Shown here: positions 30,327-62,759 of the stretch, piece after piece | How positions within the stretch are numbered: position 1 is the first letter of the stretch | Layout of the letters: each line of letters starts with the position of its first letter | Origin: an uncultured Flavobacteriaceae bacterium | GTDB lineage: Bacteria; Bacteroidota; Bacteroidia; Flavobacteriales; Flavobacteriaceae | Direction of reading: 5' to 3' | DNA: 64,000 nucleotides | Assembly (NCBI GenBank): GCA_947501845.1 | Contig: CANMXP010000007.1 | Coordinates: 151,381 to 215,380, forward strand | Program-made: the position numbers and the translations under genes | Notes under the pieces: model-generated | The model's database searches: none | Told to the model about the DNA's origin: nothing | What the model saw: the letters and a program-made list of their open reading frames with translations, nothing else

Positions 30327-33300
30327 ATGATAAGTAATTCCATAAAAGAAAAAACTATGGAACAAACCAATTCAGAGAATAACATACAGTTAGACGGTGG
30401 CACCTATGAGATTATTCAAGGGCGTTTACAAAAACAAAAAAGTGAACTACTTTCAAGATTGTCTCAATTAAACGATGCTCGCAAAAGTGTTTTCGGCAAT
30501 GTTGAAACTAAACTTATTGCCAATAATCGCATCAATACCGAAAACAACTGTATAGCCAGAGATATTGTTACCATTGGAGATAAGTGTTTATTTGGTTATA
30601 ATGTACACTTTGGACTTCGAACAGGTATCACACTTGCAGATGTGTTTAGCATTTACACTTACGATAGTGATCACTTCACCATTCAGCCCTTAGATATACT
30701 AGAAGATGCTATTTTTATAAACGATTTCACCAATCTTTATAAATACTATAGAAATACCATTTTTTCAAAATTTGCCATAGTTGGTAATTATTTGCACATG
30801 GTATTTCAATTAAGCGATAGTATCACAGATATAAAAACATTTAAATGGTTAATTAACGACAATAAACTTGAATATGTAGACAATCGTAGTGAACACGAAT
30901 TTAAATTCCCTAATCAGCATGAATTCAATTGGGTGGAACCTACCAGAGACCATCATGTGTATGGCGAGCACCCTCACATATCTATTCTAGATAAAGTATT
31001 TGTAGAAACTATTGGTGGGGATTTAACTATTAAAATAGAAGATAATACAGAGGATGGTAAAGGTATTTATAGTGAGCCCGTAGAGCATCCAGATCAAACC
31101 TTAGATGACGGACAGTATAAATATGCAGACTTAGGTAATTTAATTACTTTAGAAATAAAGCCTTTTCAGGAAACTCCAAGGTATTTTGTTTATAATCATA
31201 AAATACAAGAGGTAAAAAAAATACCAAGTATTGCCGATGCTTGTGTATTATTACCAGATGATCAAGGTATTATTTTTGCAGATGGCTATTATTTACAATC
31301 TGGAGATTTTAAATTATTTGATAATGGTATTTCCAACGTTAAATTCAAAAAGAAAGTAAGTTCTCCTAACGGTGAAGATTTTCTTTATGTATTTTATGAA
31401 AGTGAAAGAGGCTTGTATGTACTCATGTCTTACAATGTTATAGAACAAGAGGTAAAGACACCTATTATCTGTAACGGGTATACCATTTTAAATGATGGTG
31501 AATTATGTTACTTTAAAACCGAAGACGAACAGACAAAACACCATGTTATTCAAATATGGCAAACCCCATTTTTAAAAGGTGATGTTATTCCTTCAGAACA
31601 TACCGATACGCTTTTATATAAAATAGGAAATAAAGACATCGTAAAGGCCATGGCAGAATGTCAAGCCTTAATTACCTTACTAAATAAAGAAGACAGTTAC
31701 GATGGACTGTATGATGATATTGCTAAATCCTCAAGCGATGTTTTAAATAGTTATTACTGGATAACAGAGCCTGACACTTTTCTGATTAATGAGCCTCTAA
31801 CAGAATTAAACGAGGCCGCTAATGCAGCTATAGATGAATTTGAAAAAGTAGTTCAACTGCGTAAAACTGCTGCAAATATTACCAAAGACACGCAGACCAA
31901 AGCAAATGGTATTTTTGGAAAAATTAAAAGCAGCACTTTTAAGTCTATTGAAGACTTCGTTTTTGTACTATCACAATTAAGAACACTAAGAGGCGAAGTT
32001 ATAGGTTTAAACGATATTCGGTACATAGATACATCATTTATTAGCGGATTAGAAGAAGAGATAGTCCTTCAAAATGATAAAATTTCTGAGCGTTGTGTGC
32101 AATTTTTATTGAACGACAAAGCGCTTATACCTTATCACAACCGTGTTGCTGAAAAAGAAACAGCATTAGACGAGATTAAAAAAGTTATTGACGCTAAAAA
32201 ATTAGAAGAAGATGTCAATCAAATCGCTACCGATTTGGAAATGCTCATAGATATTGTTTCAAACTTAGAAATAGAAGACGCTTCGCATTCTACAAAAATT
32301 ATTGATAACATTTCATTAATTTTTGCCACCATTAATCAACTTAAAGCAGGATTAAAAAACAAATTAAAAGCTTTAGGAGAAAAGGAAGCTTCAGCTGAAT
32401 TTGCTGCGCAGCTAAAATTAGTAGATCAAAGCATTATTAATTATTTAGATATTGCTACCACACCAGAAAAAACAGACGAACTACTAAATAAAGTGTCAGT
32501 ACATTTAGAAGACTTAGAAGGTCGGTTTGCAGATTTTGAAGATTTCATCTCTCAAATTATTGAAAAAAGAGAAGAAGTATATAATGCTTTTGAAACTAGG
32601 AAAAATAGCCTTGTTGAAGCTAGAAATAAAAAAGCGATAACCTTAGAGGCCGCAGCCAACAGAATCTTAAAAGGGGTAACAAAAAAAGCCTTAAGCTTTA
32701 AAACTACGGTTGAGATTAACGGTTATTTTGCTTCTGATTTAATGATTAATAAGCTTCGTGATATTATAACGAGGCTTAAAGATTTAGATGATGCTGGAAA
32801 GGCTGAAGCTATTGAAACAGGACTTAAAGTTGCTAAAGAAGATGCTGTTAGAAAACTAAAAGACACTCAAGATTTATATGAAGATGGCGAAAACATTATT
32901 AAACTAGGCAAACACAAATTTGGAGTTAACAAACAGCCTTTAGACCTTACTATTGTTTATAAAGACGAAACCTTAAAATATCATCTAACAGGTACCGATT
33001 TTTATCAAACTATTGAAGACAAAACGCTAATTACATCTCAAAAATATTGGAATCAAGAATTAATTTCAGAAAATCAACATATATACAGGTCCTCTTATTT
33101 GGCCTATAAAATATTCACAAATGCATCGCTTGATATAAATCAACTTAACGAAACAGAGTTACTCGAGCTTGTAAAAAATGAAAGTAGTAAAAACTATTCT
33201 GAAGGTTATATAAAAGGGGTTCATGATGAAGATGCAACCCAAATTTTAAAGGCTTTAATTAACAAACATCACGATTTGGGGCTATTGCGTTATACACCTA

Positions 33301-44565: not shown

Positions 44566-45101
44566 TTCCTTTTCTTCTTTGATTTTTTAGATGATTTCTT
44601 CTTTTTATCCAATTTCATCTTCTTTTCTATACGCCTTTGTTCATCTACCATAAAATCATAATAATGATCATTATAGCAGTGCCTTTTTGCTTCTTTTAAG
44701 TATTTTAAGCAGGTTTTGTATTTTCCTTGCGTTTCCTCTATATAAGAAGACAACCAATTTATTTCGGCTTTACTTATCGTTTCTATAGTTTGTGAAAAGT
44801 CTACTAGTTTTTTTGCTCTATCTATCTTGTTATTCCAAATTAGGTATTTGATGTACATTGGATAAACATCTTCGTAACTGGTATCTATAGCAATAACTTT
44901 ATCAAAACATTCAAATGCTTTCTCTGGCATCGATAAATATTTTGCATAGATTTCTCCTAATAAGCAAAGTGACGCACAGTGGTTTTCATCGTACGAAAGT
45001 GCATAGTTTAAAGATTCACAAACTTCTTCCCAGTCACTACAAAAACCACTTGTTGCAGCTTTTGCTTTTAAATAATAACTGTCTGCTAATGTTAATCCCA
45101 T
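44562..45101 (-). CDS. TPR-like helical-repeat protein with lysine-rich C-terminal tail
   Basis: 179 aa. Tail [17 protein letters not shown]. Overlaps prfH by 10 nt (operon). Confidence 0.35.
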
Positions 45102-45787
45102 TTTTGTTGTCTTAAATTATTCTTTAATTCTTGTCGTTTAGACTTGTAATTTTTATTTATTTTTTGTGTTTTAAAATCAGTTCCAATAAAAACACGTACT
45201 GGATTCCCTCTTTCTAAATTGAGGTGGTTTCCCCATTGGTTCTGAACTGATTTTTTTAATTGCTCATTATTATATTCAGCTACTTTTTCTTGTAACCGTT
45301 TTATAGCTATCTTTTTATTTTGGTGCTGAGACCTGCTGTCCATTACCAAAACCTGTATGCCTGTTTTTGTATGTGTTGCTCTAATGGCTGAGCTTACTTT
45401 ATTAACATGTTGTCCTCCTGGCCCTGAACTTCTAATAGCTTGAAATTTTATATCGCTATCTATTAAAAGAGTCCCTTTCTCAGCTTCAATTTCATAAATA
45501 CCAACAAACCAATTTTTTCGCTTACGAAATTTTCTGAAAGATGATTTTCCTATCCATTGTACTGTCCCCAACCAATTGCTTAAAAAAGACTCCAACGCTT
45601 TTCCTTGTAATTGAATAGTTGCAGATTGTAACGTTCCGTTTTCTGTACCAGATTCTCTTTGTAATAGCGTATATTCTATTTTCGCTTTTTTTATCTCTTC
45701 AATGAAATACTTTAAAACTTGAGCTACAACCCAGCAACATTCAATAGGTCCTCTTCCTGATGTTATTTGTATTGTTTTTGTTTTCAT
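45092..45787 (-). CDS. prfH: PrfH (peptide-chain-release-factor homologue H), the partner of RtcB2 in ribosome/rRNA-repair modules
   Basis: 231 aa. GGQ motif [15 protein letters not shown]. Short RF-like architecture lacking a codon-recognition domain. Start overlaps the rtcB stop. Confidence 0.8.
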
Positions 45788-47178
45788 TATTTATCCATTC
45801 TAACAATTTTTGGTGTAAATGTTCCTAACACTTCTACCAATTCTTGTTGATTATTCATTACTTTTTTAATGTTCTTATAAGCCATTGGTGCTTCATCTAC
45901 GCCACCACCAATAAGCGTAACATCATGCATTTTTAATTGCTGCTTTATATCACTTTTTGTGAATTTCTCTTTGCACTTTCTTCGTGAATGCAAACGTCCT
46001 GCTCCATGAGATGCCGAGTTTAAGCTTTCACTATTACCCAAGCCTTGTACTATATATCCAGGAGCAGTCATCGATCCTGGGATAATACCCAACTCGCCTT
46101 TATTGGCTGGTGTTGCTCCTTTACGATGTACAATACATTCTTTATCGTTTACCATTTCTTTCCAAGCAAAATTGTGGTGATTTTCAATCTTAACTACAGC
46201 TTTAGAACCCAGTAACTTTCCTATGCGATAATGAATGTCGTCATGACATGCCTTAGCGTAATCACCAGCTAGATTCATAGCTAGCCAATATTCTTGACCA
46301 TCATGCGTATTTAAATCCAGCCATGCTAAATGCTGAACATTTTTAGGTAATGGGCATTGTTTACTAGCTAAATAGGTATAATGTTTTGCAATGTTAGCTC
46401 CTAATCCTCTTGAGCCACTATGTGACAATACACCTATGTAATCACCAGCTTTAAGCTGCCATTGATTATCCTCATCCGTTATAGAAACCACTCCAAACTC
46501 CACAAAATGATTGCCTCCTCCCGATGTTCCCAATTGCTTAAATGCTTTTATCTTTAACCGTTTTAGTAAAGGAATATCGTCAAACTCAGCTCTTGCAAAA
46601 ATCTCATGGTCGTGTTTTTTATCATGTGTTTCATACATCCCAAATTTGGTGTGATTTGATAAAATATTCTCCAACTGATGTTGCTTCCCCTTTAAATAAG
46701 AAGCTTTCATTGGGTAAATGGTTAAACACATTCTACACCCAATATCTACCCCAACACCATAAGGAATTACTGCATTATCAGTTGCTAAAACAGCGCCTAT
46801 TGGCAACCCATAACCTGAATGTGCATCTGGCATTAAAGCTCCTGATACAGCTATTGGTAATTTTAAGGCATCGTATAATTGGTACTTTGCTTGTTCATCA
46901 ATCTCGTTTTCACCATAAATATTAAAAGGCACTCTTGTATTTTTAAGTTGATGAAATTTAACCTCAACTGGCTTTACCAAACCTTCAACTACTTTTCCCC
47001 AAATGGCATTACCTTGAAATTTTTCTGGGTTTTGTAATACGGCTTTCGCTTCTTCCAAAATGCGTTCTTTTTTTTCTCTTTTTCGGTATCTGTTTATTTG
47101 CCCTAAAGCAATATTGATACTATTATTTTTTGGGAACCCCAATTTTATTAGGTCTTTCCCTTTTAGTTTATTTCCCAT
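45787..47178 (-). CDS. rtcB: RtcB-family RNA 3'-phosphate/5'-OH ligase (RtcB2-type, paired with PrfH)
   Basis: 463 aa. [33 protein letters not shown] catalytic motifs. Confidence 0.85.
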
Positions 47179-47888: not shown

Positions 47889-49274
<1,386 letters not shown>

Positions 49275-49469: not shown

Positions 49470-51080
49470 ATGAACATTAAAATTGCATCTGTACTGTATT
49501 TATTTGGCTTAACATTACAATTATTTTCTCAAGAAACACCTAAAAACTGGCATCTATTAGATGAAAAAGAAGACAATATCCCTGGAATTAGTCTTGAAAA
49601 AGCTTATAACCTGTTGAAAGAGCATAATAAAAAGTCATCACCAGTAATAGTTGCTGTTTTAGACTCTGGCTTAGATATCAATCATGAAGATATTAATCCC
49701 ATTTTATGGGTCAATCCCAAAGAAATTGAAGGCAATAATTTAGATGATGATGGCAATGGTTATATTGACGACGTTCATGGTTGGAATTTTATTGGTGGCC
49801 CAAACGGACAAAATATAGAAGCCGAAACTTTAGAACTAACAAGATTCTACAAAAAATTCAAAGAACAATTTAAAGGGAAAAACAAATTTAATATTGCTCC
49901 TGAAGAAAAAGAAGATTATGAAAAGTTCCTCATATATATGAAAGCATACAATGAAGGAAAAAGCAAATTAAAATCCTCTATAAAAAATAACACAGAAGAA
50001 TTTACGTTTTTTGACAAGCTAATACCTCCACTACAAGAAGCAGTTGGAAAAAACTCATTTACCGAAAAAGAACTTAAAAAAGCGAAGCTTAAAGGCCAAA
50101 AACTTGAAAACTTAAGAGCTAAGTTTTTTAGAATTTTAGAGCGAAACAAAGAAAAGGACCTTACCTCAGTAAAATTAATCAAACATTACGAAGACCTTTC
50201 ATCTCAAATGGAATCTTTAAACACCAGATTAGAATATAACTATAGTTTAGATTTTGACGGCAGAGCCATTATTGGTGATGATTATAGTAACTTAAATGAA
50301 AAAATTTATGGTAACAATGATGTTTCTAAAAGGGCTGAACACGGTACCCACGTTTCTGGCATTATAGGCGCTGTTAGACATAACAATATTGGCATTAACG
50401 GTATTGCAGATAATGTCATTATAATGCCCATTCGAAACACACCTATGGGAGATGAAGCCGATAAAGATGTCGCTAATGGTATCCGTTATGCTGTTGATAA
50501 TGGTGCTAAAATTATTAATATGAGCTTTGGAAAAGATTTTTCTCCCCAAAAAGAAGCTGTTGATGAAGCGGTTAAATATGCACAAGAAAAAGGCGTGCTC
50601 CTGGTACATGCAGCAGGAAATGATAATAAAAACACAGACTATTTTTACAATTATCCTAGTGCCTTATTAAAAGACGGTTCAGTTGCTGATAATTGGATTG
50701 AAGTGGGAGCCAGCTCTTTTAATTTGAATGAAAAACTACCAGCTACATTCTCCAATTATGGTAATGTATCTGTTGATATTTTTGCGCCAGGGGTCGATAT
50801 CTATGCCACTTTGCCCAATAACGCTTATGATACTAGAAGCGGAACTAGCATGGCAGCCCCTGTAGTTTCTGGTATTGCAGCCTTGCTATTTTCATATTTC
50901 CCACATTTAACACCCGAACAAGTCATATCAATCATCACTGAATCTGGCATTACTTATAACATAGATGTTAACCAACCTGGTTCAGAAAATAAAGTACCAT
51001 TTTCTTCTTTATCAAAAACTGGCAAGATTATAAATGCTTATTCTGCGGTCAAACTAGCTTTAAAGAACTATGACAACTAA
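49470..51080 (+). CDS. Secreted subtilisin-like serine protease (peptidase S8)
   Basis: Signal peptide. Catalytic triad motifs VAVLDSGLD (Asp), HGTHVSGIIG (His), GTSMAAPVVSG (Ser). Confidence 0.85.
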   Translation: MNIKIASVLYLFGLTLQLFSQETPKNWHLLDEKEDNIPGISLEKAYNLLKEHNKKSSPVIVAVLDSGLDINHEDINPILWVNPKEIEGNNLDDDGNGYIDDVHGWNFIGGPNGQNIEAETLELTRFYKKFKEQFKGKNKFNIAPEEKEDYEKFLIYMKAYNEGKSKLKSSIKNNTEEFTFFDKLIPPLQEAVGKNSFTEKELKKAKLKGQKLENLRAKFFRILERNKEKDLTSVKLIKHYEDLSSQMESLNTRLEYNYSLDFDGRAIIGDDYSNLNEKIYGNNDVSKRAEHGTHVSGIIGAVRHNNIGINGIADNVIIMPIRNTPMGDEADKDVANGIRYAVDNGAKIINMSFGKDFSPQKEAVDEAVKYAQEKGVLLVHAAGNDNKNTDYFYNYPSALLKDGSVADNWIEVGASSFNLNEKLPATFSNYGNVSVDIFAPGVDIYATLPNNAYDTRSGTSMAAPVVSGIAALLFSYFPHLTPEQVISIITESGITYNIDVNQPGSENKVPFSSLSKTGKIINAYSAVKLALKNYDN

Positions 51081-51112: not shown

Positions 51113-52129
51113 ATGGCACTAAATAAAAACGCATTAATACGCTATAAAACCATTGATAAATGTCTCCAAAACAATTATAGACAATGGACATTAGATGATT
51201 TGATAGAGGCGTGCTCTGATACATTATGTGAATATGAAGGCAGGGAAGTAAATGTAAGCAAACGCACTGTTCAATTAGACATCCAAATGATGCGTAGTGA
51301 TAAACTAGGTTATAACGCTCCAATTGTTGTCTACGACAAAAAGTTCTACAAATATGAGGATGAAGATTATTCTATAACTGACATTCCCCTCAACGAAAAT
51401 GACATGAATGTGCTTTCGGAAACGGTTGAGATGTTAAAGCAATTTAAAGACTTCTCTTTATTTTCAGAATTAGGTGGTATTATTCAACGTTTGGAAGATA
51501 AAGTTTATACCGAAAAAACACATCAATCCGCCATTATACATTTAGACAAGAATGAAAAGCTAAAAGGCTTAGAACATTTAGATATATTGTATCAGGCCAT
51601 TTTAAAAAAGATGGTTCTAAAAATTGAGTACCAATCATTTAAAGCAAGGCAGGCCTCTGAGATTATTTTTCATCCGTTTATTTTAAAAGAGTTTAACAAT
51701 CGCTGGTTTTTAATAGGTAAACCAGGAGTAGAAGCTAAAAAACCGATAGTTACTTTTGCTTTAGACAGAATAGTTGCTATCGATTATGATACTACAATCA
51801 AATACAAAAACGACAACTTTAATGGCGATCAATATTATAAAGATGTCATTGGGGTTACTGTTTCAAATACCCGTGCTGAAAGAATCCAATTTTGGGTAGA
51901 CAAGAAAAATGCTCCTTATGTAATAACTAAGCCTTTTCACAATTCACAAAGGGTCATAAAACAAACCGATGACGGTGTTGTTTTTAACATTTTTGTGCAA
52001 ATTAATTTTGAATTGGAACGGATGATCTTGGGTTTTGGAGACTCTATTGAAGTTATTAAACCAAAACGTCTTAGAGATCGCATGCAACAAAAGTTAGAAA
52101 AGGCTGTAGAATTTTACGAAAAAGAATAG
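51113..52129 (+). CDS. WYL-domain transcriptional regulator (N-terminal wHTH + WYL + C-terminal extension; BrxR/CapW-like architecture)
   Basis: HTH region …SKRTVQLDIQMMR. WYL region …IIFHPFILKEFNNRWFLIG…FALDRIVAIDY…. Confidence 0.6.
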   Translation: MALNKNALIRYKTIDKCLQNNYRQWTLDDLIEACSDTLCEYEGREVNVSKRTVQLDIQMMRSDKLGYNAPIVVYDKKFYKYEDEDYSITDIPLNENDMNVLSETVEMLKQFKDFSLFSELGGIIQRLEDKVYTEKTHQSAIIHLDKNEKLKGLEHLDILYQAILKKMVLKIEYQSFKARQASEIIFHPFILKEFNNRWFLIGKPGVEAKKPIVTFALDRIVAIDYDTTIKYKNDNFNGDQYYKDVIGVTVSNTRAERIQFWVDKKNAPYVITKPFHNSQRVIKQTDDGVVFNIFVQINFELERMILGFGDSIEVIKPKRLRDRMQQKLEKAVEFYEKE

Positions 52130-52283
52130 TATCTGCTTAAGGTACATTTTTATGTTCTATAATAAATAATATTAGCCTTATTTTCTAAGTAAATATACTT
52201 TACTCATTAAAACGCCCCGTTCACTCAATCATATTTTATTTAAAAGATCCATTTTATCTAGATTTGAAGAAATAATCATTCAA

Positions 52284-55109
52284 ATGGGTTTAAAAAAATA
52301 CAATTCTTATTTATTTTTCTTCTTTCTCTTTATTACATCGTTGTGCTCTGCTCAAAGAGGTATTATTTCTGGTGTATTAGAAGATGAATCTGGAATTCCC
52401 CTTCCTGGAGTCAATGTTATTGTAAAAGGAACTACTAGTAGTGTTCAAACTGATTTCGATGGCAATTATAGTATTGAATGTCAGGTAGGTGATATTTTGC
52501 TGTTTACCTACATTGGAATGAAAACAAGGGAAGCAAAGGTGACCTTAGAGATGTTTGGTGACCAAAAATTAACGCAATCTAAACGAGAGGAGCCAGTATC
52601 TAACATTATCAATGAAGCCTACTCCAATGCTCTGAAAACAGTTATAGATTCATTATCTCGTTCACAGGATATTTCAGAAAACCCATTAAAATATAATAAA
52701 AGAAACTATTATTTTGATTATGATAGAATTAAAAATATAAAAGAAGACTCAAACAAGATTAAAGTAACTTATTTTAGACCAGATATCTTTTATAAAATTG
52801 GATTTAATAGTTCAACTAGCTTTCAATTTGTTGACAAAAATAATTTGCCCGAATTACAAAAGACTTTCGTACAAGGAAGACCAGTAAATGGAAGTAATCA
52901 ATGGTTTGGTCCTGAAACAGATGAAATGTTTTCTTTTGGATCGACTATTAATGCGTTGACCTTTGATGGCTCAAATTACTTGTATGACACCAATGGGAGA
53001 TTAATCAATAGTGTCGCTGGGAATCAAACACTTCCATATAACAATAATCTATTTAAGACCAGTAAGATATTATCAAACAACCTAAATCTAGCAATATCAA
53101 ATAATATACATTCCATTAATCTGAACTTAAGAAGAAAGACTCAAGAAGATTTATTTGGTATTGAAAAAGGAAACTTAACTCAAATAGATTTTAACTACAA
53201 TTTCAAGAGCAAGCATAAGGTTTTTTTTAAATCGAATACTGAAATTAACAATCAACCAAATATTAATGGTTTTTACAGCAATATCCTGTTAGCGTCTTAT
53301 ATAACTCCTACTTCATTTGAAAATAATCAGGGATATATTTTTGATGATAATATGCAGCGTAATTTTAGTCCTAATCATTTTAACAATCCATTTTGGTTGT
53401 TAAATTTAAATAGAAACAGAAACAGGTCAACATCTATACTTTTTGGAGTAAAGAATAAGTTTAATATCACCGATGACTTAAAATTAAACACAATCCTAAG
53501 TTTCAATAAGGAAAAAGATAAAATCAACTTTGCATTACCCATAAATACTGTTGGTTTTGTAAGCGGATATAGAAGTAATAAAGGTTATTTTAAAGAAACA
53601 TTACATGGTTATTTAGCTTTAAAATATAAAAAGTTTATTGATGATTTTTCCAATATTGAAATTGAATCATCAATAAAATATTTGGATGCCTCTCTTAAAT
53701 ACGACTTAATGGAACTTAGTGATTTTTCAGACTTAAGTTTTAACAATCCGTCAAATGGGTCATTTGTTTCTCACAAAGTGAAAAATAATTCCATTCGTCT
53801 TGCAAATGAAATAAAGTTTGACTTAGACGTAGATTTTGATGCTGATATAACTTTAAAAAACAACTCTATTATATCCTCATTACAAGGAAATGAAGTTTTA
53901 TTACCAGCAATACAATTATATATAGATGCTTCTCAAATATTTTATACTGACTGGTTAAATACATTTTCAATAGCCGTTGGTATAGCTAAAGAAGCCAAAG
54001 AATCACCTTTGTTTTATTCTAATCTAAGCCATAATAGCCTTAATATTACACCCGAACAATCACAATCTTTATTAGCCAATAATGATCTATTTAATTCTAA
54101 GGCATTAGATTTTGAAACAGGTACTAATTTCGATATTGAAAGTAACATGCGATTATTTTATAATGTTGTTAATATTGGTATAAACTATTATGTCTCAAAA
54201 ACTAATAACAATATCTTTCCTCTTCTTACAAATGGTGCATTTGAATTACAAAATGTAGCATCAATAAAAAACAGAGGTCTAGATGCCAGTCTTGAATTTA
54301 ACATAGGCCGTTCGTGGAATAAGTTTCTTTATCAACCCACATTCCTTTTTTCTAGAAGTAGAGCAAAAGTCTTAAAGCTAAATGATGGCAGAACTTCTAT
54401 TCCCATTGCAGGTTTTAGTAATGTATCTAAAAATTTAATTGTTGGTGAGCAAACAGGAGCTATTGTAGGATCTACTTTCTTAAGAGATGCTAATGGTTCT
54501 GTTATAATGGGTAATGAAGGTTATCCAATAGTAGATTCACAAAATAAAATTATTGGAAATACAACTCCTGATTTTAATTTGAGTATGGATAATAATTTTA
54601 AAATTGGAAAAATTAAAATCAATTTTTTAATTGATTATCAAAAAGGTGGAGATGTTTGGAGTGGCACAAAAAATGTCTTGAATTACATAGGAAAATCTCA
54701 AGAGTCTGCAAATTTAAGAGAAACAACAAACTTTATATTTAACGGAGTAGACCAGTTTGGTAATACTAATACAATTCCTGTAGATTTTGCAAATCCAAAT
54801 CAGGATGTTATGTCGAATAGATGGGTACGGTATGGTTTTGATGGTGTCGATGAGGAAGCTATTGTTGATGGATCATTTATCAACTTAAAATCAATCAGTC
54901 TTTCATACGATTTTGGAAAGAATAATAAAGATGATTTATTCAGACAATTTGAATTAAGTCTTTATGGGTTTAATCTATTATCATACACAAAAGCATCAGG
55001 AGTATCACCATATTCTTCCTTATTCAATTATACTTCAGGTAAAGGATTAGATTATTTCAATACTCCATTAATAAAAGAAATAGGATTTAAAATCAATATA
55101 AAAATCTAA
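52284..55109 (+). CDS. SusC-like outer-membrane beta-barrel protein with signal peptide and CarbopepD_reg N-domain but NO recognisable plug domain
   Basis: 941 aa. GIISGVLEDESGIPLPGVNVIVKGTTSSVQTDFDGNYSI (CarbopepD_reg). The remainder is Asn/Tyr/Gly-rich with alternating-hydrophobic C-terminus (…EIGFKINIKI). No IVVxGYG…IRG…DGVP… plug motifs seen. Confidence 0.5.
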   Translation: MGLKKYNSYLFFFFLFITSLCSAQRGIISGVLEDESGIPLPGVNVIVKGTTSSVQTDFDGNYSIECQVGDILLFTYIGMKTREAKVTLEMFGDQKLTQSKREEPVSNIINEAYSNALKTVIDSLSRSQDISENPLKYNKRNYYFDYDRIKNIKEDSNKIKVTYFRPDIFYKIGFNSSTSFQFVDKNNLPELQKTFVQGRPVNGSNQWFGPETDEMFSFGSTINALTFDGSNYLYDTNGRLINSVAGNQTLPYNNNLFKTSKILSNNLNLAISNNIHSINLNLRRKTQEDLFGIEKGNLTQIDFNYNFKSKHKVFFKSNTEINNQPNINGFYSNILLASYITPTSFENNQGYIFDDNMQRNFSPNHFNNPFWLLNLNRNRNRSTSILFGVKNKFNITDDLKLNTILSFNKEKDKINFALPINTVGFVSGYRSNKGYFKETLHGYLALKYKKFIDDFSNIEIESSIKYLDASLKYDLMELSDFSDLSFNNPSNGSFVSHKVKNNSIRLANEIKFDLDVDFDADITLKNNSIISSLQGNEVLLPAIQLYIDASQIFYTDWLNTFSIAVGIAKEAKESPLFYSNLSHNSLNITPEQSQSLLANNDLFNSKALDFETGTNFDIESNMRLFYNVVNIGINYYVSKTNNNIFPLLTNGAFELQNVASIKNRGLDASLEFNIGRSWNKFLYQPTFLFSRSRAKVLKLNDGRTSIPIAGFSNVSKNLIVGEQTGAIVGSTFLRDANGSVIMGNEGYPIVDSQNKIIGNTTPDFNLSMDNNFKIGKIKINFLIDYQKGGDVWSGTKNVLNYIGKSQESANLRETTNFIFNGVDQFGNTNTIPVDFANPNQDVMSNRWVRYGFDGVDEEAIVDGSFINLKSISLSYDFGKNNKDDLFRQFELSLYGFNLLSYTKASGVSPYSSLFNYTSGKGLDYFNTPLIKEIGFKINIKI

Positions 55110-55114
55110 AGGTT

Positions 55115-58100
55115 ATGCATACTAGAAAAGCGATACTATTCATTCTAATTTCATTCCTGTTTTCATTTAAGGGCATAGAGCTGCACAGACAAAGCTTTAT
55201 TGAGAAGGTTTATACACAAACCGATCGATCTCTATACTTTCCAGAGGATACTATTTGGTTTAAATCTTATATCACAAATGCTGAAGGCAAAATATCAACA
55301 ATTAGCGAGGTTATGCATGCGCAATTAATATCCCCAAAAGGAATTGTAGTTAAAGACATTAAGCTTTCAATTACTCAAGGTTATGCATATGGTGATTTTG
55401 AAATTGAAGAAGATTGGGTTGGTGGGATATATAAAATCCGTATGTTCACCAACTGGATGAGAAATTTTGGAAAATCTTCATTTTTTGAAAAAGAGCTTGT
55501 TGTTCAAAAAGTTATAAGTCCAAACCTATTAATGACTTTGGAGTTTGATAAAGAGTCCTATGGAAGTAATTCTGAAGTCATTGCTCACTTTGAAGTAAAA
55601 GATCTAAAAAACGAACCTTTATCAAATAAAGAAATACAATTCGATGTTCACATCAAAGGTAAAAAAATAAAATCTGAAACAGTAACAATAGGTGTCAATG
55701 GAAAATATGATATCACCTTTAATCTACCTCATAATTTAAAGTCTACAGATGTACTACTAAATGTATTGGTTCCACACAAAAGTTCTAAAGAATCTATTTC
55801 AAGAAGTGTTCCTGTCACCTTAAATAATGTTGACTTACAATTTTTTCCAGAAAGTGGCAGAGCCATAATAGGTATTGACAATCAAATTGCTTTTAAAGCG
55901 GTGAATGAATTTGGAAAGCCTACTGATATTTCTGGTGACATTGTAGATACAAAAGGCCAACTAATTAAAACGTTTAGGAGTTTTCATGATGGTATGGGAA
56001 GTTTTACTTTTACACCTAATTCAGAACAGTATTATGCTAAAATTACTGAACCGTTTAAATCTGATTCATTAATACCTCTTCCAAAGGCACATATTAAAGG
56101 GGCTTCATTTAGTATAATTGATAAGAATAATTCTTATTACATAAATATCCATTCAAATGAAAAAACGGCGTTGACACTTTCTGTTTCTAATGCTTATAAA
56201 GAATTGGTTACAAAACAACTTTATGTGTCAAATAATGAGGCTTCATTTCAATTGAGTAAAGAAGATTTGTCTAAAGGAATTATTAAAGTGTCTTTGCAAA
56301 GTGAGAAAGGTAATGTTTTAGCAGAACGATTACTCTTCGCTAATAAGTCGAACCAATTAAAAGTGAATGTATCTCTGGACAAAAAGACTTATAACACTAG
56401 AGAAAAAGTGATAGTAAAAATAAAAACAACCGATGCTTTCGATAACCCCGTCCCATCCAATTTATCAGTCAGTGTTGCTGACAATAAGTTAGTTTCATTT
56501 GCTAATGATAAACAGGATAACATTCAATCTTATCTACTAATGTCTTCTGAATTGAGAGGCAAAATATATAAACCTTCATTTTACTTTGATCCAGATGAAG
56601 ATAAAGCTGAAAAAGCTCTAGATTACGTCATGCTTACACATGGTTGGAGAAGATATATTAATGATACTATAACATTTGAAAACGCAAGATTTCGGCCTGA
56701 TCTAAAAGCAATTCAGTATGGTAAAGTAGTTGATAAAAATTCTAAAGGAATAAAGAGCCATTTATTGTTATTTAATCAGGATTCAGACAAGGTGTTAAAG
56801 TTTGATACTAATGAAAAAGGCGCATTTTCATTTAAAGTTGATAAGATTAGTAATATGGTTTTAGTTGCTTACACAGACGATGGTAAAAAATTAAACATCA
56901 TTAGGGAAAAATTTGTTAAGGCTACTGTTCAAAATGATAAACAGCAATCTAATGATAAAAAAAGTATTATAGGATTTAAGCGAAATGATATTAAAAAACC
57001 TCTTAATAAAACAATTAAGGAAGCGGTAAAACAAATGGGGGCAGTCGCTATAACTTTAGATGAGGATAGTGCACAACTTGATGAGATTGTAGTTGTTGGT
57101 TATGGAATACAAAAAAAGAGAGCGCTCTCTGGTGCAGTTGTTACTGTTGTTGAGGACAACAGTATTTCTAAAATAAATGTAGATAATATTGGTCAATTAT
57201 TACAAGGTAGAATATCAGGTGTTCAAGTTGTAAATGCTTCAGGTCTTTATGGTAGTAGATCTAATATTTCAATTAGAGGATCGAGCTCTATAACAGGGAA
57301 TTCACAACCTCTATTTGTGATTGATGGTGTACCCTATAACCAGAATGATTTAGGAGGCGGTGCATTACAAAATATTGACCCATTAAATATAAATAATATT
57401 CATGTTCTAAAAGGAGCAGCAGCTTCCTCTTTATATGGCTCGAATGGGGTAAATGGTGTTGTTATAATAACAACTAAAAATCAAGCCTTTAATCGTCTTT
57501 ATGGCAGCAAGTCTTTAAACAATAAGAAATTTAAGAACTACGCTGTACAGACATTTCATAATTATGGACTAAACACTTATAACAGTAAACAATTCTATAT
57601 CCCGATATATGAGAGCGAAACGTTTTTAAATGATAGAAATGATTTTAGGGAAACTATTTATTGGAATCCAGTAATACAAACTGATGAAAATGGAGAAGCT
57701 TCTTTTGAATATTATAATTCGGATGCTATAACATCATTTATTATTACAACGGAAGGTATTGGATACAATGGGTTAATTGGTAAGAATGAAACAAAATATG
57801 CTACAAAAAAAATATTAAATATTGATTTTAAAGCTCCTAGCTATATGGTGCTTAATGACACGATAAGTTTGCCTATAACAATAAGTAATGAGTCCAACAG
57901 ATTAATTACAGCAAAATTAAATATAGAACTCCCTGATGAGTTAAAACCCCTTGAGCCTTTCAAAGAATTAAGTATTAACATTAAACCTAATTCATATGAA
58001 GTTAAAAACATCAAGATTACACCTATTAAAAAAACTAAAGAAACTACAATTAAAATTAGTGCCATTGGGGATGATTATAATGATAAAATAGATAAGAATG

Positions 58101-59695
58101 TTACAATCATTAGCCCTTATTTTCCAACTCAAACATCTATTTCAGGACATAAAGATGGAACATATCAGTTTGATATTAATAATGTTGTGGATGGAAGTTT
58201 AAAGGCGGAATTTTCTATATATACTGATATTGTTGGGAATGTCATGGACGGCATTGAATCTTTAATAAGAGAGCCTTATGGGTGTTTTGAACAAGTATCT
58301 TCAAGCACATATCCTAACGTTTTAATATTAAAATATCTTAAGGAAGCAAATAAGAGCAACCCAGAAATAGAAAAAAAAGCATTGAGTTTCATAAAAAAGG
58401 GGTACAGAAAATTAGCTGCATATGAAACCTCCGAAGGTGGTTTCGAATGGTATGGACATACACCTCCTCATGAAGCGTTATCTGCTTATGGTTTAATGGA
58501 GTTTATGGAAATGAAAGACGTATATGATGGTGTAAGTGACCAGATGATTCAAAGAACAGTCAATTATCTTATTAGTAGAAAGAATGGTGTAGGAGGCTTT
58601 AAACAGAATAGAGGTAAATATGGTTTTTCAGCTGCTCCTGAAAATGTAAATAATGCTTATATCATTTATGCGCTAAGTGAATCTAAAATAAAAGTAGATG
58701 TTGAAAAAGAATATAACGCCGCTTTTAACGAAGCCTTGACAAGTAATGATTCATATAGAATGGCTTTAATGGCTTGCGCTAGTTTTAATTTAAACAAGCT
58801 TGAAAACGCCCATCTTCTTATTAGCAAAATAAAAGAGAATATTAATCTTTATGGTTTTAATAAACTATCTGTCGAAAATACAATCACACGATCTTATGGC
58901 AATGCCAAAGAAATTGAAACTACTGCATTCTCCATTTTTGCCTTGTTGAAACAAGGTGAATCTGAATACCTTGTAAGTCAAGGAATAGAATCTATTTTAT
59001 CAAAAAGGAAATATGGCCGATTTGGTTCTACACAGGCAACCTCAATGGCATTAAAAGCATTGATCGAATATACCAAAACTCAAAAACAGAAGATTGTAAA
59101 TGATAGTTCAATTGAAATTATTATTAATGGTCATAGCTTAAAAGAGAAATTAACCGTGAATAGTACAGGCAAAATTGTCATTGAGAATATCGAAAATTAT
59201 ATAAAACCTGGCAAACAAAATGTGACCATAAGTTTTTCAAATCCAGAAATCACATTCCCGTATATGCTTAATGTAGAATGGGACAGTACACTTCCAAACA
59301 TTTCGCCTGAATGTAAGTTAGAACTTAAGACGAATATATCTGATCCTATATATCAAGTTGGAGAAACTATTCGAATGAATATTAACGTGATAAATAAAAC
59401 AAATAAGCCCTTACCAATGACCACTGCCATTATTGGTATTCCTTCTGGCACATCAGCGCAACCGTGGCAGTTAAAAGAAATATTGAAACAACATAAAGCA
59501 GACTATTTTGAGATTTTTGATAATTATTTAGTATTCTATTGGAAAGAGTTTAATAGCTCAGAAAGTAAAGAAATTAAATTAGATCTTAAAGCAGAAGTCT
59601 CAGGTAGCTATCATGCACCAGCTAGTACCGTTTATTTATACTATGCGGATGAATTTAAACATTGGTTAAGAGGGAACAAAGTAGTAATTGAATAG
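55115..59695 (+). CDS. Alpha-2-macroglobulin-family protein (MG domains + thioester-domain-like region, motif GCFEQ) carrying an internal CarbopepD_reg-like + TonB-plug module
   Basis: 1526 aa. N-terminal MG-like TDRSLYFPEDTIWFKSYI. Internal IVVVGYGIQKKRALSGAVVTV…LQGRISGVQV…ISIRGSSSITGNSQPLFVIDGVPY…HVLKGAAASSLYGSNGVNGVVIITTK (classic SusC plug). Downstream MG motif TIYWNPVIQTDENGEASFEY. TED-like REPYGCFEQ…GGFEWYG. Confidence 0.6.
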   Translation: MHTRKAILFILISFLFSFKGIELHRQSFIEKVYTQTDRSLYFPEDTIWFKSYITNAEGKISTISEVMHAQLISPKGIVVKDIKLSITQGYAYGDFEIEEDWVGGIYKIRMFTNWMRNFGKSSFFEKELVVQKVISPNLLMTLEFDKESYGSNSEVIAHFEVKDLKNEPLSNKEIQFDVHIKGKKIKSETVTIGVNGKYDITFNLPHNLKSTDVLLNVLVPHKSSKESISRSVPVTLNNVDLQFFPESGRAIIGIDNQIAFKAVNEFGKPTDISGDIVDTKGQLIKTFRSFHDGMGSFTFTPNSEQYYAKITEPFKSDSLIPLPKAHIKGASFSIIDKNNSYYINIHSNEKTALTLSVSNAYKELVTKQLYVSNNEASFQLSKEDLSKGIIKVSLQSEKGNVLAERLLFANKSNQLKVNVSLDKKTYNTREKVIVKIKTTDAFDNPVPSNLSVSVADNKLVSFANDKQDNIQSYLLMSSELRGKIYKPSFYFDPDEDKAEKALDYVMLTHGWRRYINDTITFENARFRPDLKAIQYGKVVDKNSKGIKSHLLLFNQDSDKVLKFDTNEKGAFSFKVDKISNMVLVAYTDDGKKLNIIREKFVKATVQNDKQQSNDKKSIIGFKRNDIKKPLNKTIKEAVKQMGAVAITLDEDSAQLDEIVVVGYGIQKKRALSGAVVTVVEDNSISKINVDNIGQLLQGRISGVQVVNASGLYGSRSNISIRGSSSITGNSQPLFVIDGVPYNQNDLGGGALQNIDPLNINNIHVLKGAAASSLYGSNGVNGVVIITTKNQAFNRLYGSKSLNNKKFKNYAVQTFHNYGLNTYNSKQFYIPIYESETFLNDRNDFRETIYWNPVIQTDENGEASFEYYNSDAITSFIITTEGIGYNGLIGKNETKYATKKILNIDFKAPSYMVLNDTISLPITISNESNRLITAKLNIELPDELKPLEPFKELSINIKPNSYEVKNIKITPIKKTKETTIKISAIGDDYNDKIDKNVTIISPYFPTQTSISGHKDGTYQFDINNVVDGSLKAEFSIYTDIVGNVMDGIESLIREPYGCFEQVSSSTYPNVLILKYLKEANKSNPEIEKKALSFIKKGYRKLAAYETSEGGFEWYGHTPPHEALSAYGLMEFMEMKDVYDGVSDQMIQRTVNYLISRKNGVGGFKQNRGKYGFSAAPENVNNAYIIYALSESKIKVDVEKEYNAAFNEALTSNDSYRMALMACASFNLNKLENAHLLISKIKENINLYGFNKLSVENTITRSYGNAKEIETTAFSIFALLKQGESEYLVSQGIESILSKRKYGRFGSTQATSMALKALIEYTKTQKQKIVNDSSIEIIINGHSLKEKLTVNSTGKIVIENIENYIKPGKQNVTISFSNPEITFPYMLNVEWDSTLPNISPECKLELKTNISDPIYQVGETIRMNINVINKTNKPLPMTTAIIGIPSGTSAQPWQLKEILKQHKADYFEIFDNYLVFYWKEFNSSESKEIKLDLKAEVSGSYHAPASTVYLYYADEFKHWLRGNKVVIE

Positions 59696-59851: not shown

Positions 59852-60244
59852 ATGACAATACTTACAATCAAAGATGAAACTGCTTCGGGAGATATTTTAA
59901 ATGAAATACGAATTAAAGTAGAAAACGAAAGGACTACGCTGAAAGATATTATTACAGCTCGTGTATTAACAGAAGTAGAAAATTATAATAATTCTAAATC
60001 AGAGTATTTTAAAGGATTGATTCAACCAAGTGATACAGAGAAAACATTAAACGGATTTCGAGTTAAAAAAAGAAAATCCATAGATGGAGAGCAGCAAGTT
60101 TATGTTGCGCTTTATGCATTCATGCGTAATGGCTTTTTTGTAATTGTAGATGATGAACAAATTACAGATTACGATGAAGAAATACTTGTAAACACAGACA
60201 CCAAAATAAGTTTTTTTAGATTAACGCCATTAGTTGGAGGTTAA
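59852..60244 (+). CDS. Hypothetical 130-aa protein ending in Gly-Gly (…RLTPLVGG*). Possible ubiquitin-like/beta-grasp tail
   Basis: ORF. The GG terminus and an 11-nt overlap with the next gene are read directly. Fold is not verifiable. Confidence 0.3.
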   Translation: MTILTIKDETASGDILNEIRIKVENERTTLKDIITARVLTEVENYNNSKSEYFKGLIQPSDTEKTLNGFRVKKRKSIDGEQQVYVALYAFMRNGFFVIVDDEQITDYDEEILVNTDTKISFFRLTPLVGG

Positions 60245-60248
60245 GAAT

Positions 60249-62759
60249 ATGAATGATTTTTTTAAAAGAATGTTTGGGCATCAAGCCAAAGAAACCCAAA
60301 AAGAAACATCAGTTAATAAGGAAGTACAATTATTCATAAATGACTTTGTTAATGAGTCTATAGAGACAAAAGAAGGTTACGCAATAAAACTAAGCGGTCT
60401 TGAACATTATAAATCTCTTAAAACAAAACCTATTGACTTTAAAAAGGATGTTATTCACCTTTTAATTTACTATAAAAATATTGGATATCAAGGCATCAAT
60501 CACATATGGTCTAAAGAATCATATTTTGTGAAAGATGTATTTTCTAAACTATTAAGTTTATTAATGCGTTCATCAGCTTTAAGTTTTAATGAAGATGAAT
60601 TGCTGAAATTAAGCATAGAACTTTCTGCAAAGAAGAGTAGTTATTTTCACACACCTGAATGGCCAATCATCCCTTTTTTAAGCAGAGTAGAAAAACTGGC
60701 AAAAGATTCTACACTTACTCCTAAGCTAAAAGAAAGCCTTAATCATATTCAAAAGCTAATTTCTAATCAAAGATATGTTTATGCTGACGAGACTAAAGTT
60801 TTAAATAGAATTAAGCTTATTAAAGAAGGTCCAAAACAGTTTTCTATTAGTAGCAGTGATAAACTAGGTAAAGCTATTTTAAATACCACAAAAGCATTTA
60901 AAGATGAAAAGGAAGAAGCATTTATTTCATTATTGAACCATTTTTCAAAAGGAAGAGAAAAAAGTACACCAACAAAGGCTTGGTTTAAAGACTGTAATAG
61001 TAAAATAGAATTAATTGGGAAAGAATTCTTGGTAACCAGTTTTATATCATGGATTGGTTTGATAATACAAGTGCTAAAGGAAATCCATAAAGATAAATCT
61101 TATGAGTTTACATTTGCTTCCGATGAAAATATTCAATTGCTAAGATCATCTATTTGGATGAGTTCTGTATTGAATGATAATAACTTAAATCAAACAGTAG
61201 AAGACTTAGGCTTGTGGAGTTTTAAAAAATTGTCAGGTCACGGTGCCGTTAGTGTAAAATTAGGTAATGCTTGTATTTATGCATTTTCTAAATTACCATA
61301 TAAGGATGGGGTTTCAAGGTTGACGAAGTTTAGAATGAAAATTAAATACCCTTCTGTACAATCACTAATCACTAAGGCTATTGTTAGAGTTGCAGAGGCT
61401 GAAGGCAAGACAATGGATGAAATAGAGGAGCTCGCTGTTCAAGATTTTAAATTAAATGATAATTATCAATTAATCAAAGATTTTGGTTCTTATAAAGGAA
61501 TAATAACAATTATAGACAGTAGCACTGTAACCTTATTATGGGAAAATGAAAAAGGAAAACAAATTAAGACTATTCCTAAATACGTAAAAGACAACTTGCC
61601 TACGGAATTAAGGGAATTTAAAAAGCTGATAAAGGATATTCAATCAAATCTCAGCGCACAAAGGAATAGAATAGAAAAAATATTTTTAGGCAAGCGACAA
61701 TGGACATTTTCAGAATGGGAAGAATTATACTTAGAAAATAAATTATTAGCCTTTTTTGGAACAAAACTTATCTGGAATTTTACTGAAAATAATAAGACAA
61801 TAAGTGCCATTTTTCATAATGAAAAATTTGTCGATACTCAAGGGGTTATAAATGTTGATTTCAAGAAATCCTTAGTAGAATTGTGGCATCCTGTAACTGC
61901 TACTATAAAAGAAGTAGAATTATGGAGAGAATGGTTGCTTGAGAACCAAGTGAAACAACCTTTCAAGCAAGCTCACCGAGAAGTATATATAGTTACAGAA
62001 GCTGAAAAGACAACAAATTCTTATTCTAATAGGTATGCAGCGCATATTATTAGGCAACATATTTTTAATGCCTTATGCAGAGAAAGAGGGTGGCGCTATC
62101 AACTTCAAGGACAATGGGATTCTCATAATATTCCAACACTATACATTCCTTCTTGGAAATATAGAATAGAATTTTGGACTGATACCGAAGGTGTATATGA
62201 TTCAGCTAATGACATGGGGATATTTAATTATTTGCAAACTGACCAAGTTCGTTTTTACGATGAGTTTAATCAAGTTAATACGAGTGATGTTCCTGCAATA
62301 GTTTTTTCTGAATCTATGCGAGATGTCGATTTGTTTGTTGGTGTTACAAGTATTGGAGCTGACCCAAATTGGCGAGATGGCGGAGAAGAAAGATTTCATG
62401 GTTATTGGTCTAATTTTTCATTTGGAGAATTGGCTACAAGTGGTTTAGAACGAAAAGCTTTGCTTGAAAATCTAATACCAAAACTTCAAATAAAAGAAGA
62501 ATGCAGTTTTGAGGGAAATTTTCTTGTTGTAAAAGGTAAACTGAGGGTTTATAAAATTCATATGGGGAGTGGTAATATTTTGATGAAACCTAATGATCAA
62601 TATTTGTGTATAGTAGCGGACAGAAAAAAAGAACAAAATGTGTTTTTACCATTTGAAGGAGACTCAACATTATCTACCATATTAAGCAAAGCATTTATGT
62701 TAGCAAACGATGATAAGATTAAGGATAAGACAATAACGAGTCAAATTGAAAGGCGTTAA
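60249..62759 (+). CDS. DUF4132-like large protein (MolR-C-terminal-type domain)
   Basis: ~837 aa from ATG 60249 (ORF track starts at TTG 60234). C-terminal motifs LWHPV…ELWREWLLEN…QPFKQAHREVY resemble the DUF4132 signature. Confidence 0.45.
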   Translation: MNDFFKRMFGHQAKETQKETSVNKEVQLFINDFVNESIETKEGYAIKLSGLEHYKSLKTKPIDFKKDVIHLLIYYKNIGYQGINHIWSKESYFVKDVFSKLLSLLMRSSALSFNEDELLKLSIELSAKKSSYFHTPEWPIIPFLSRVEKLAKDSTLTPKLKESLNHIQKLISNQRYVYADETKVLNRIKLIKEGPKQFSISSSDKLGKAILNTTKAFKDEKEEAFISLLNHFSKGREKSTPTKAWFKDCNSKIELIGKEFLVTSFISWIGLIIQVLKEIHKDKSYEFTFASDENIQLLRSSIWMSSVLNDNNLNQTVEDLGLWSFKKLSGHGAVSVKLGNACIYAFSKLPYKDGVSRLTKFRMKIKYPSVQSLITKAIVRVAEAEGKTMDEIEELAVQDFKLNDNYQLIKDFGSYKGIITIIDSSTVTLLWENEKGKQIKTIPKYVKDNLPTELREFKKLIKDIQSNLSAQRNRIEKIFLGKRQWTFSEWEELYLENKLLAFFGTKLIWNFTENNKTISAIFHNEKFVDTQGVINVDFKKSLVELWHPVTATIKEVELWREWLLENQVKQPFKQAHREVYIVTEAEKTTNSYSNRYAAHIIRQHIFNALCRERGWRYQLQGQWDSHNIPTLYIPSWKYRIEFWTDTEGVYDSANDMGIFNYLQTDQVRFYDEFNQVNTSDVPAIVFSESMRDVDLFVGVTSIGADPNWRDGGEERFHGYWSNFSFGELATSGLERKALLENLIPKLQIKEECSFEGNFLVVKGKLRVYKIHMGSGNILMKPNDQYLCIVADRKKEQNVFLPFEGDSTLSTILSKAFMLANDDKIKDKTITSQIERR

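Follow-up and report, generated by a model that had tools for sequence, protein, structure and literature searches.

Can a TonB-dependent transporter be built from two polypeptides, with the plug of its barrel carried by a different protein? This question is raised by two adjacent genes of a 64,000-nucleotide stretch of DNA (hereafter the window; contig CANMXP010000007.1 of assembly GCA_947501845.1, positions 151,381 to 215,380 of the forward strand) from an uncultured Flavobacteriaceae bacterium. The first gene encodes a SusC/RagA-type outer-membrane barrel protein of 941 aa, in which no plug domain is found, and the second encodes a protein of the alpha-2-macroglobulin (A2M) family, 1526 aa in length, which contains a TonB box and a SusC-type plug. 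Based on their sequences, we suggest, with a probability of roughly 0.6, that both products belong to one outer-membrane machine, i.e. a naturally split SusC/RagA-type TonB-dependent transporter whose plug is provided in trans.

Both open reading frames (ORFs) lie on the same strand and are separated by a spacer of 5 nt (AGGTT). Their domains were assigned using Pfam and NCBIfam together with a plug hidden Markov model (HMM) built from 120 homologues, structures were modelled with AlphaFold2 (AF2) and compared using Foldseek, and defence genes were sought with PADLOC. The positions of the SusC/RagA family model TIGR04056 were found to be split between the two proteins without overlap: positions 215-980 match the barrel protein (161.7 bits), and positions 58-205 match aa 635-789 of the A2M-like protein (176.9 bits), with both scores falling below the curated family cutoff of 368.25 bits. 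The individual features are listed in Table 1.

The only Pfam match in the barrel protein is the CarbopepD_reg_2/CarboxypepD_reg domain (aa 28-96), corresponding to the SusC N-terminal extension (NTE), which also matches the solved NTE domains of SusC proteins (9hfj and 6ytc). It is preceded by a putative signal peptide, which in the homologues ends with AQ or SQ just before the NTE; no conserved lipobox was found in the signal peptide of the window protein or in the homologue N-termini. Except for aa 93-143, which are predicted to be disordered (predicted local distance difference test score, pLDDT, <50), the AF2 model (pLDDT 86.6, predicted TM-score 0.76) is composed of long antiparallel strands, and its top Foldseek match is SusC BT2264 (5fq6/5fq7, E=1e-43, TM-score 0.68), with other SusC proteins and RagA also among the matches.

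Neither Pfam nor NCBIfam revealed a Plug match in the barrel protein at E<=0.1. The custom plug HMM matched none of the 60 barrel-family ORFs present in 58 loci, while recognizing canonical TonB-dependent transporters encoded in these loci. PF07715 is absent from all of the approximately 80 close homologues (920-950 aa); it is present in the next-closest relatives, canonical SusC/RagA proteins with a length of 1020-1100 aa. In a joint alignment, these canonical relatives carry the TonB box QLEEVVVTALG and the plug motifs IRG...PL.VVDG...ILKG...ANG.I.ITTK. Where the nearest of them have ~150 aa of TonB box and plug, the barrel protein has an unrelated stretch of ~75 aa devoid of a TonB box, after which the homology picks up again at LPELQKTFVQGRP. 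A plug hidden within the barrel protein was also considered, and was ruled out by Pfam, NCBIfam, the custom HMM and the AF2 disorder. No SusD/RagB-like lid gene is adjacent to the pair, the 3' neighbours being a 130-aa ORF followed by a gene for a DUF4132 protein.

The missing module was found in the A2M-like protein. Its Plug domain scored 71.8 bits (PF07715 cutoff: 23.9 bits), and the SusC/RagA signature TIGR04057 was matched by aa 759-788 (47.8 bits, cutoff 46.2 bits), running past the Plug end to position 57478. Among the homologues, the plug motifs IRG and PL.VIDG are invariant. The TonB box LDEIVVVGYG aligns with the TonB-box region of the SusC structures 8aa4, 5t3r and 6sli, as well as with QLEEVVVTALG of the canonical relatives. 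In 28 sequences from several orders, sharing 35-70% identity, its L655 is invariant and E657 is present in at least 90%; at this level of divergence the thioester motif is no better conserved than the TonB box or the core motifs of the plug. The sandwich preceding the box (aa 532-601) is below Pfam detection in the window protein, and aligns with the PF13715/PF13620 domains of its relatives (a PF13620 match is precomputed for homologues P0047 and P0083). The plug is placed between disordered linkers of ~70 and ~50 aa, the first of which includes the TonB box. The AF2 confidence for the plug itself was moderate to poor, which is expected, because it was modelled without its barrel.

These results bear out a preliminary description of the locus, made from the letters and translations of the window, in which a barrel gene with a signal peptide, a CarbopepD_reg domain and a SusC-like barrel, and without a plug, was reported to be followed 5 nt downstream by an A2M-family gene containing a SusC-type plug and, before it, a CarbopepD_reg-like stretch. 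The last of these elements is now supported by the AF2 beta-sandwich and the alignment. All the peptide strings quoted in that description are present in the A2M-like translation, no normal plug was found in the 941-aa protein, and the plug of the A2M-like protein scored above the threshold.

Table 1. Coordinates of the features of the barrel and A2M-like genes within the window (aa numbering refers to the respective protein; NTE, N-terminal extension; MG, macroglobulin domain; TED, thioester domain)
Feature	Coordinates	Strand	Basis
Plug-less SusC/RagA-type outer-membrane barrel protein, 941 aa	52284..55109	+	ORF, TIGR04056, AF2, Foldseek
Putative signal peptide, ~aa 1-24, predicted cleavage ...SLCSAQ/R	52284..52355	+	sequence, homologue N-termini, AF2 helix aa 3-21
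NTE, CarbopepD_reg beta-sandwich, aa 28-96	52365..52571	+	PF13715 E=6e-13, PF13620 E=4e-9
~75-aa linker at the canonical TonB box and plug site, aa 97-175	52572..52808	+	alignment, AF2, without family match
SusC-type beta-barrel, aa 176-940	52809..55103	+	TIGR04056 positions 215-980, AF2 strands, Foldseek
A2M-family thioester-motif protein with SusC NTE, TonB box and plug, 1526 aa	55115..59695	+	Pfam, NCBIfam, profile alignment
Hydrophobic signal sequence, ~aa 1-20, predicted cleavage	55115..55174	+	sequence, homologue N-termini
MG2, aa 31-114	55205..55456	+	PF01835 E=2e-12; aligns with human A2M 123-206
Conserved, partly helical segment, aa 460-530	56492..56704	+	conservation, AF2 pLDDT 28-41
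CarbopepD_reg-like (SusC NTE-like) beta-sandwich, aa 532-601	56708..56917	+	AF2 strands pLDDT 69-82; alignment
Variable disordered linker, candidate residual bait, aa 602-654	56918..57076	+	AF2 pLDDT 25-33; lowest conservation in family
TonB box LDEIVVVGYG, aa 655-664	57077..57106	+	translation, alignments
Plug domain, aa 674-782	57134..57460	+	PF07715 E=8e-20, 71.8 bits
C-terminal linker between plug and MG7, ~aa 795-846	57497..57652	+	AF2 pLDDT <50 for most of aa 794-845
A2M (MG7), aa 847-935	57653..57919	+	PF00207 E=7e-9
TED, aa 1033-1319	58211..59071	+	PF07678 E=4e-31; all-helical, AF2 pLDDT 80-93
CxEQ thioester motif GCFEQ, aa 1056-1060	58280..58294	+	translation, alignment
MG8/receptor-binding-like domain, ~aa 1400-1526	59312..59692	+	weak bMG10 match; AF2 beta-sandwich, pLDDT 81-93

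What kind of macroglobulin carries this plug? At least 990 homologues of ~1520 aa share the same Pfam set, and most of them are annotated as 'TonB-dependent receptor plug domain-containing protein'. Apart from MG2, further MG domains extend up to ~aa 456 (AF2 beta-sandwiches at aa 330-456), and the C-terminal domain of relatives gives A2M_recep and bMG10 matches. An AF2 model of aa 330-1526 (pLDDT 71.7), in which MG7, CUB, TED and MG8 are confident, has a body closer to the native-state A2M structures (TM-score 0.40-0.43) than to the activated ones (~0.22). Foldseek related this model to A2ML1, CD109 and TEP1 (E~1e-40), and among proteins of solved structure those most similar in sequence are likewise eukaryotic, i.e. 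A2M, CD109, A2ML1 and TEP1 (E 1e-47 to 1e-34); in the profile comparison, E. coli YfhM and Salmonella A2M reached only ~1e-14.

The motif CXEQ is a hallmark of thioester A2M proteins (PMC5764988). The preliminary description had read GCFEQ as a replacement of this motif, which has to be corrected: PYGCFEQ of the family lines up position by position with the PYGCGEQ stretch of human A2M, and CxEQ is invariant in 240 homologues (120/120 and 120/120, among the matches listed). Judging by this alignment, GCFEQ is an intact CxEQ thioester motif and not a loss. Among the most conserved parts outside the TED is the segment aa 460-530 (DDKQD..SYLL.SSEL.GK...P.FYF......ALDYVMLTHGWRRY), with many invariant or nearly invariant columns. 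It was considered as an interface specific to the plug-bearing proteins, and this was rejected, as the segment is common to all three cassette classes described below.

The N-terminal region of the A2M-like protein and its homologues contains no Cys, hence no lipobox, and no type IX secretion C-terminal domain was detected in the protein by sequence inspection and Pfam. Some of the homologues have a typical AQ cleavage site. The protein appears to be a Sec-exported, non-lipidated component of the cell envelope.

The position of the plug is defined by comparison with human A2M. Positions 837-1485 of the family profile align with human A2M 725-1424, and the C-terminal linker ends opposite residue 725, where the bait region (690-728) comes to its end. 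In A2M proteins the bait, exposed and sensitive to proteases, lies between MG6 and MG7. According to this alignment, the cassette consisting of the NTE-like sandwich, TonB box and plug occupies the bait-region site of the A2M fold, and the disordered linkers flanking it could still act as bait.

Comparison with the relatives revealed that this site accommodates different inserts. In plug-free relatives a CarbopepD_reg domain is kept at the same position, and in the protein of Rapidithrix thailandica (L041:7193-12070) a TonB C-terminal domain (TonB_C, PF03544) is present at the bait site (aa 812-887). A search with the latter protein distinguished a class with CarbopepD_reg and TonB_C (~1600-1660 aa, at least 22 clusters, annotated as 'TonB family protein'), in which a second CarbopepD_reg domain and PF03544 replace the plug (homologues P0241-P0258, P0264, P0267, P0273 and P0274). 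The plug-bearing proteins of the window type form the second class, and the third one is characterized by CarbopepD_reg followed by a low-complexity linker (~1450-1500 aa). In the alignment the insert has identical flanks in all three, being preceded by ...LMTxGWRRFTW and CarbopepD_reg and followed by FYxPxY...RTDFRxTIYWNP. No conserved partner gene was found for the plug-free and TonB_C classes among the loci examined. As TonB-system modules are repeatedly placed at the bait site within this thioester-motif clade, the link with TonB-dependent transport seems to be functional rather than accidental.

Is the barrel gene a constant companion of the plug? A scan with the C-terminal half of the A2M-like protein matched at least 597 loci of Flavobacteriaceae, Cytophagales, Chitinophagales, Saprospiraceae and Bacteroidales, from which 80 loci were taken and, with two further ones, constituted a sample of 82 neighbourhoods (83 with the window). 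When the ORFs of this set were clustered, conservation was restricted to the A2M-like gene (81 loci) and the barrel gene (58 loci), every other cluster being limited to 10 loci or fewer. A survey of Bacteroidota for the same gene pair had been advised in the preliminary description, and the pair indeed recurs across Flavobacteriales, Cytophagales, Chitinophagales, Saprospiraceae and Bacteroidales. The barrel gene is mostly located upstream of the A2M-like gene, with a spacer mostly of 2-5 nt; it was found downstream once, in a Cytophagia metagenome-assembled genome (MAG; L046).

For loci with full context on both flanks, a plug-less barrel gene is adjacent to 49 of the 50 plug-bearing A2M-like genes and to none of the 12 plug-free ones, a pattern that extends over several orders. 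Together with the conservation of the pair in the 82 loci, this co-variation supports the idea, already put forward in the preliminary description, that the barrel is completed in trans by the plug of its neighbour.

Several observations weigh against this interpretation. The co-variation counts are not phylogenetically independent. One locus (L050, Ascidiimonas meishanensis) has a plug-bearing gene with no adjacent barrel, although the latter may lie elsewhere in the genome. The mirror-tree partial correlation between plug and barrel, with the A2M body controlled for, was low (r=0.11, permutation p=0.09, 54 pairs). The plug is of a generic SusC type, no nearer to the closest canonical relatives of the barrel than to other SusC proteins, and many of the A2M-like proteins have an atypical signal-peptide cleavage region. 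In addition, the similarity of the plug to 41 canonical relatives does not track that of the barrel (Spearman -0.12), therefore an origin of the pair by fission of a single SusC gene is not established.

How could the two proteins work together? The solved structures of TonB-dependent transporters all have the TonB box, and likewise the junction between the plug and the first strand, on the periplasmic side. As both ends of the plug are periplasmic, a cassette suspended on two flexible linkers could be inserted into an empty barrel from the periplasm. A barrel of SusC size would form a large open pore if left unplugged and so needs a plug, and as the only orphan plug of the locus is encoded by the next gene, a two-polypeptide transporter is proposed. 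In this model, the barrel gene would supply the signal peptide, the NTE and a large beta-barrel without TonB box or plug, and the A2M-like protein would contribute the NTE-like sandwich, a disordered linker, the TonB box and the plug on its two long flexible linkers. The cassette, inserted from the periplasm, would close the pore, with the ~150-kDa macroglobulin body hanging beneath the outer membrane, and TonB would engage the conserved TonB box and pull, as in an ordinary transporter. In E. coli, an active FhuA transporter reportedly forms from cork and barrel that are exported separately.

Because the plug sits where A2M proteins sense bait cleavage, the A2M trigger site might be physically coupled to gate opening, or to proteolytic cuts in the plug or linkers. 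Speculatively, the most likely role of such a machine would be to intercept proteins, be they proteases, protein toxins or cargo, or to capture them covalently where they enter through the TonB-controlled gate; a decoy receptor and ratcheted uptake are other, equally speculative candidates, and so is the delivery of captured proteases or peptides suggested in the preliminary description. According to a 2022 study (PMC9352918), the conformational change of A2M follows retraction of the cleaved bait from the central channel, so that a force-driven version of this event is conceivable. A bolder scheme, which we regard as rather unlikely, assumes that TonB, by its pull on the TonB box, extracts or unfolds the plug at the bait position, and that this takes the place of bait cleavage in switching the macroglobulin to the reactive state, so that molecules entering through the opened barrel would be bound covalently in the periplasm. 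Along with the sister classes, in which TonB_C or the NTE alone is found, these proteins would then represent Bacteroidota-wide thioester 'gate guards' with three kinds of handles onto TonB-dependent transporters.

The same data may be explained in other ways. The plug and barrel might serve solely as an anchor, replacing the lipid anchor of the E. coli and Salmonella A2M, in which case the protein would be a conventional periplasmic protease trap with the linkers as bait and with no role for TonB. The lack of a lipobox and the intact CxEQ would be in keeping with this, as would the bait-like variability and disorder of the linkers (aa 602-654 and ~795-845) and the plain low-complexity linker found at the same site in the plug-free sister class. 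However, the TonB box (L655, E657, VVxGYG) is as conserved across orders as the structural motifs of the plug, which is hard to reconcile with a passive anchor, and a genuine connection to the TonB system is indicated by the sister class with a TonB C-terminal domain at this very site; we consider this explanation unlikely. It is less likely still that the two genes have independent functions, with their adjacency reflecting nothing but co-regulation, the Plug acting as a protein-protein interaction module outside the barrel, and the barrel's own loops or some other protein closing its lumen. The 49/50 versus 0/12 co-variation and the complementary halves of the SusC model argue against this, and the sole candidate for an internal filler of the barrel, aa 93-143, is short and disordered, leaving a SusC-size barrel that without a plug would be a large open pore. 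In favour of independence one can cite the weak mirror-tree signal, the locus with a plug-bearing gene and no barrel, and the indirect nature of the evidence for plug-barrel contact.

A further possibility is that the plug-less barrel acts as a dedicated translocon or anchor, which exposes the macroglobulin on the cell surface for trapping external proteases, by analogy with the secretion of PopC by the TonB-dependent transporter Oar. The requirement of a TonB-dependent transporter for protein secretion is documented (PMC6434023), some relatives of the A2M-like protein are annotated as 'large extracellular alpha-helical protein', and its closest solved relatives by sequence, the eukaryotic-type A2M, CD109 and TEP proteins, act extracellularly. 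We find this quite improbable, since the cassette keeps the SusC order of NTE, TonB box and plug, of which the NTE and TonB box are periplasmic in SusC, and since both plug termini would be periplasmic, placing both halves of the A2M body on that side of the membrane; moreover, a type IX C-terminal domain and a lipobox are both missing. Finally, the locus could be an artefact or a product of decay, i.e. a frameshifted, rearranged or pseudogenised SusC gene beside a chimeric mis-assembly. Nothing other than the unusual architecture speaks for this, and the idea hardly deserves consideration: the ORFs are intact, and full-length versions with 35-70% identity occur in hundreds of isolates and MAGs of several orders. 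As the length of the spacer and the reading frame differ between loci, a hidden fusion is excluded. The split transporter with its plug in trans is the explanation that we favour.

Does the neighbourhood of the pair provide any clue to its function? The preliminary description had linked the pair with the WYL regulator and the S8 protease encoded upstream and had pointed to a defence island. This part of it did not hold: both genes are singletons absent from the other 82 loci, and PADLOC gave no match for the barrel/A2M-like pair. A conserved penicillin-binding-protein gene was not found among the neighbours in the 82 loci; one such gene is located two genes away in L001, and its cluster is present in 4 loci.

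Genes encoding peptidases were observed beside A2M-like genes in several unrelated loci: an S8 subtilase in the window (49470-51080), an S9 prolyl oligopeptidase (L050:4999-7212) and M1 aminopeptidases (L060:12302-14914 and L062:12139-14748). This may be due to chance or may reflect a loose functional link to proteolysis. In Winogradskyella forsetii, genes for an extracytoplasmic function (ECF) sigma factor, a 142-aa ORF and a 156-aa ORF are located directly upstream of the plug-less barrel (L002:5597-7013). The 156-aa ORF, which is absent from the window, matches the C-terminal half of the plug HMM twice in tandem (E~1e-12 for each match) and may encode a regulatory or accessory mini-plug protein.

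On the minus strand upstream of the pair in the window, a gene with an RF-1 domain (45092-45787) lies next to two paralogous genes for RtcB RNA ligases (45787-47178 and 47889-49271), an organization resembling that of PrfH. The nearby WYL regulator may control these RNA-repair genes instead of the barrel/A2M pair. A 1640-aa DUF3686/DUF7902/AAA_5 ATPase is encoded further upstream (30327-35249, plus strand), and a DUF4132 and DUF7737 protein downstream of the pair (60234-62759, plus strand); neither was recognized as a defence protein by PADLOC. Promoter and terminator scans at the locus gave counts at chance level. An element of the Bacteroidetes type, TAnnTTTG, is present at 52259-52266, 18 nt 5' of the barrel start codon, which is a weak hint, as this motif is common by chance.

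To our knowledge, every TonB-dependent transporter described so far consists of one polypeptide plugged by its own N-terminus, and every A2M-family protein is triggered by the cleavage of a flexible bait. The Bacteroidota module described here is conserved and departs from both rules, as a SusC plug and TonB box are internal to a thioester-motif macroglobulin and located at its bait site. If our interpretation is correct, it constitutes a natural system for studies of plug insertion and extraction in trans, in which TonB force or gate opening is coupled to a covalent-capture protein. It would also offer a handle on hundreds of proteins annotated as 'TonB-dependent receptor plug domain-containing protein', 'carboxypeptidase-like regulatory domain-containing protein', 'MG2 domain-containing protein' or 'TonB family protein'. 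The ecology of Bacteroidota depends on SusC-type transport, and the module may represent an envelope-defence or uptake strategy specific to this phylum.

How does the locus relate to known systems? No description of an A2M-plug protein or of a natural split TonB-dependent transporter was found in the literature, the search leaving subscription journals mostly uncovered, so that an earlier mention is possible. With the SusC/RagA transporters (TIGR04056; BT2264, BT1763, RagA) the locus shares the signal peptide, NTE, barrel fold, TonB box, plug and signature motif. It differs from them in that these parts are distributed over two polypeptides, with the TonB box and plug inside another large protein, in the absence of an adjacent SusD-like lid gene, and in that each half scores below the family cutoff.

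There is also a partial analogy to the LptD-LptE complex, in which the lumen of an outer-membrane barrel is filled by a separately encoded protein. In contrast to our pair, LptE is a small lipoprotein, the folds are unrelated and there is no TonB coupling.

The A2M-like protein fits, by its sequence features, neither of the two types of bacterial A2M. The type I proteins (E. coli ECAM/YfhM and Salmonella SaA2M) have in common with it the MG array, the CXEQ-containing TED, the C-terminal MG domain and export to the envelope. They are lipoproteins anchored in the inner membrane, linked with pbpC (PBP1c) and possessing a free bait (PMC5764988), whereas the A2M-like protein has no lipobox, is not encoded beside pbpC, is nearer to the eukaryotic A2M, CD109 and TEP1, and has a folded SusC cassette at the bait site. 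The type II proteins (Pseudomonas MagD/YfaS) lack CXEQ, are encoded in the six-gene mag operon, are held at the inner membrane via MagB and keep the bait (PMC5764988). They resemble our case in that a macroglobulin is part of a multiprotein envelope complex encoded by the same operon, a complex which here is predicted from the genes; the differences are the presence of CXEQ, the outer-membrane barrel as the partner and the two-gene operon.

Plug and barrel have likewise been handled as separate polypeptides in the case of FhuA, reportedly in its laboratory-split version and, as a barrel alone, in the cork-less FhuA delta5-160 (PMC9581862). In contrast to these constructs, the split observed in Bacteroidota is natural and conserved, with the plug lying inside a 1526-aa protein as one of its domains.

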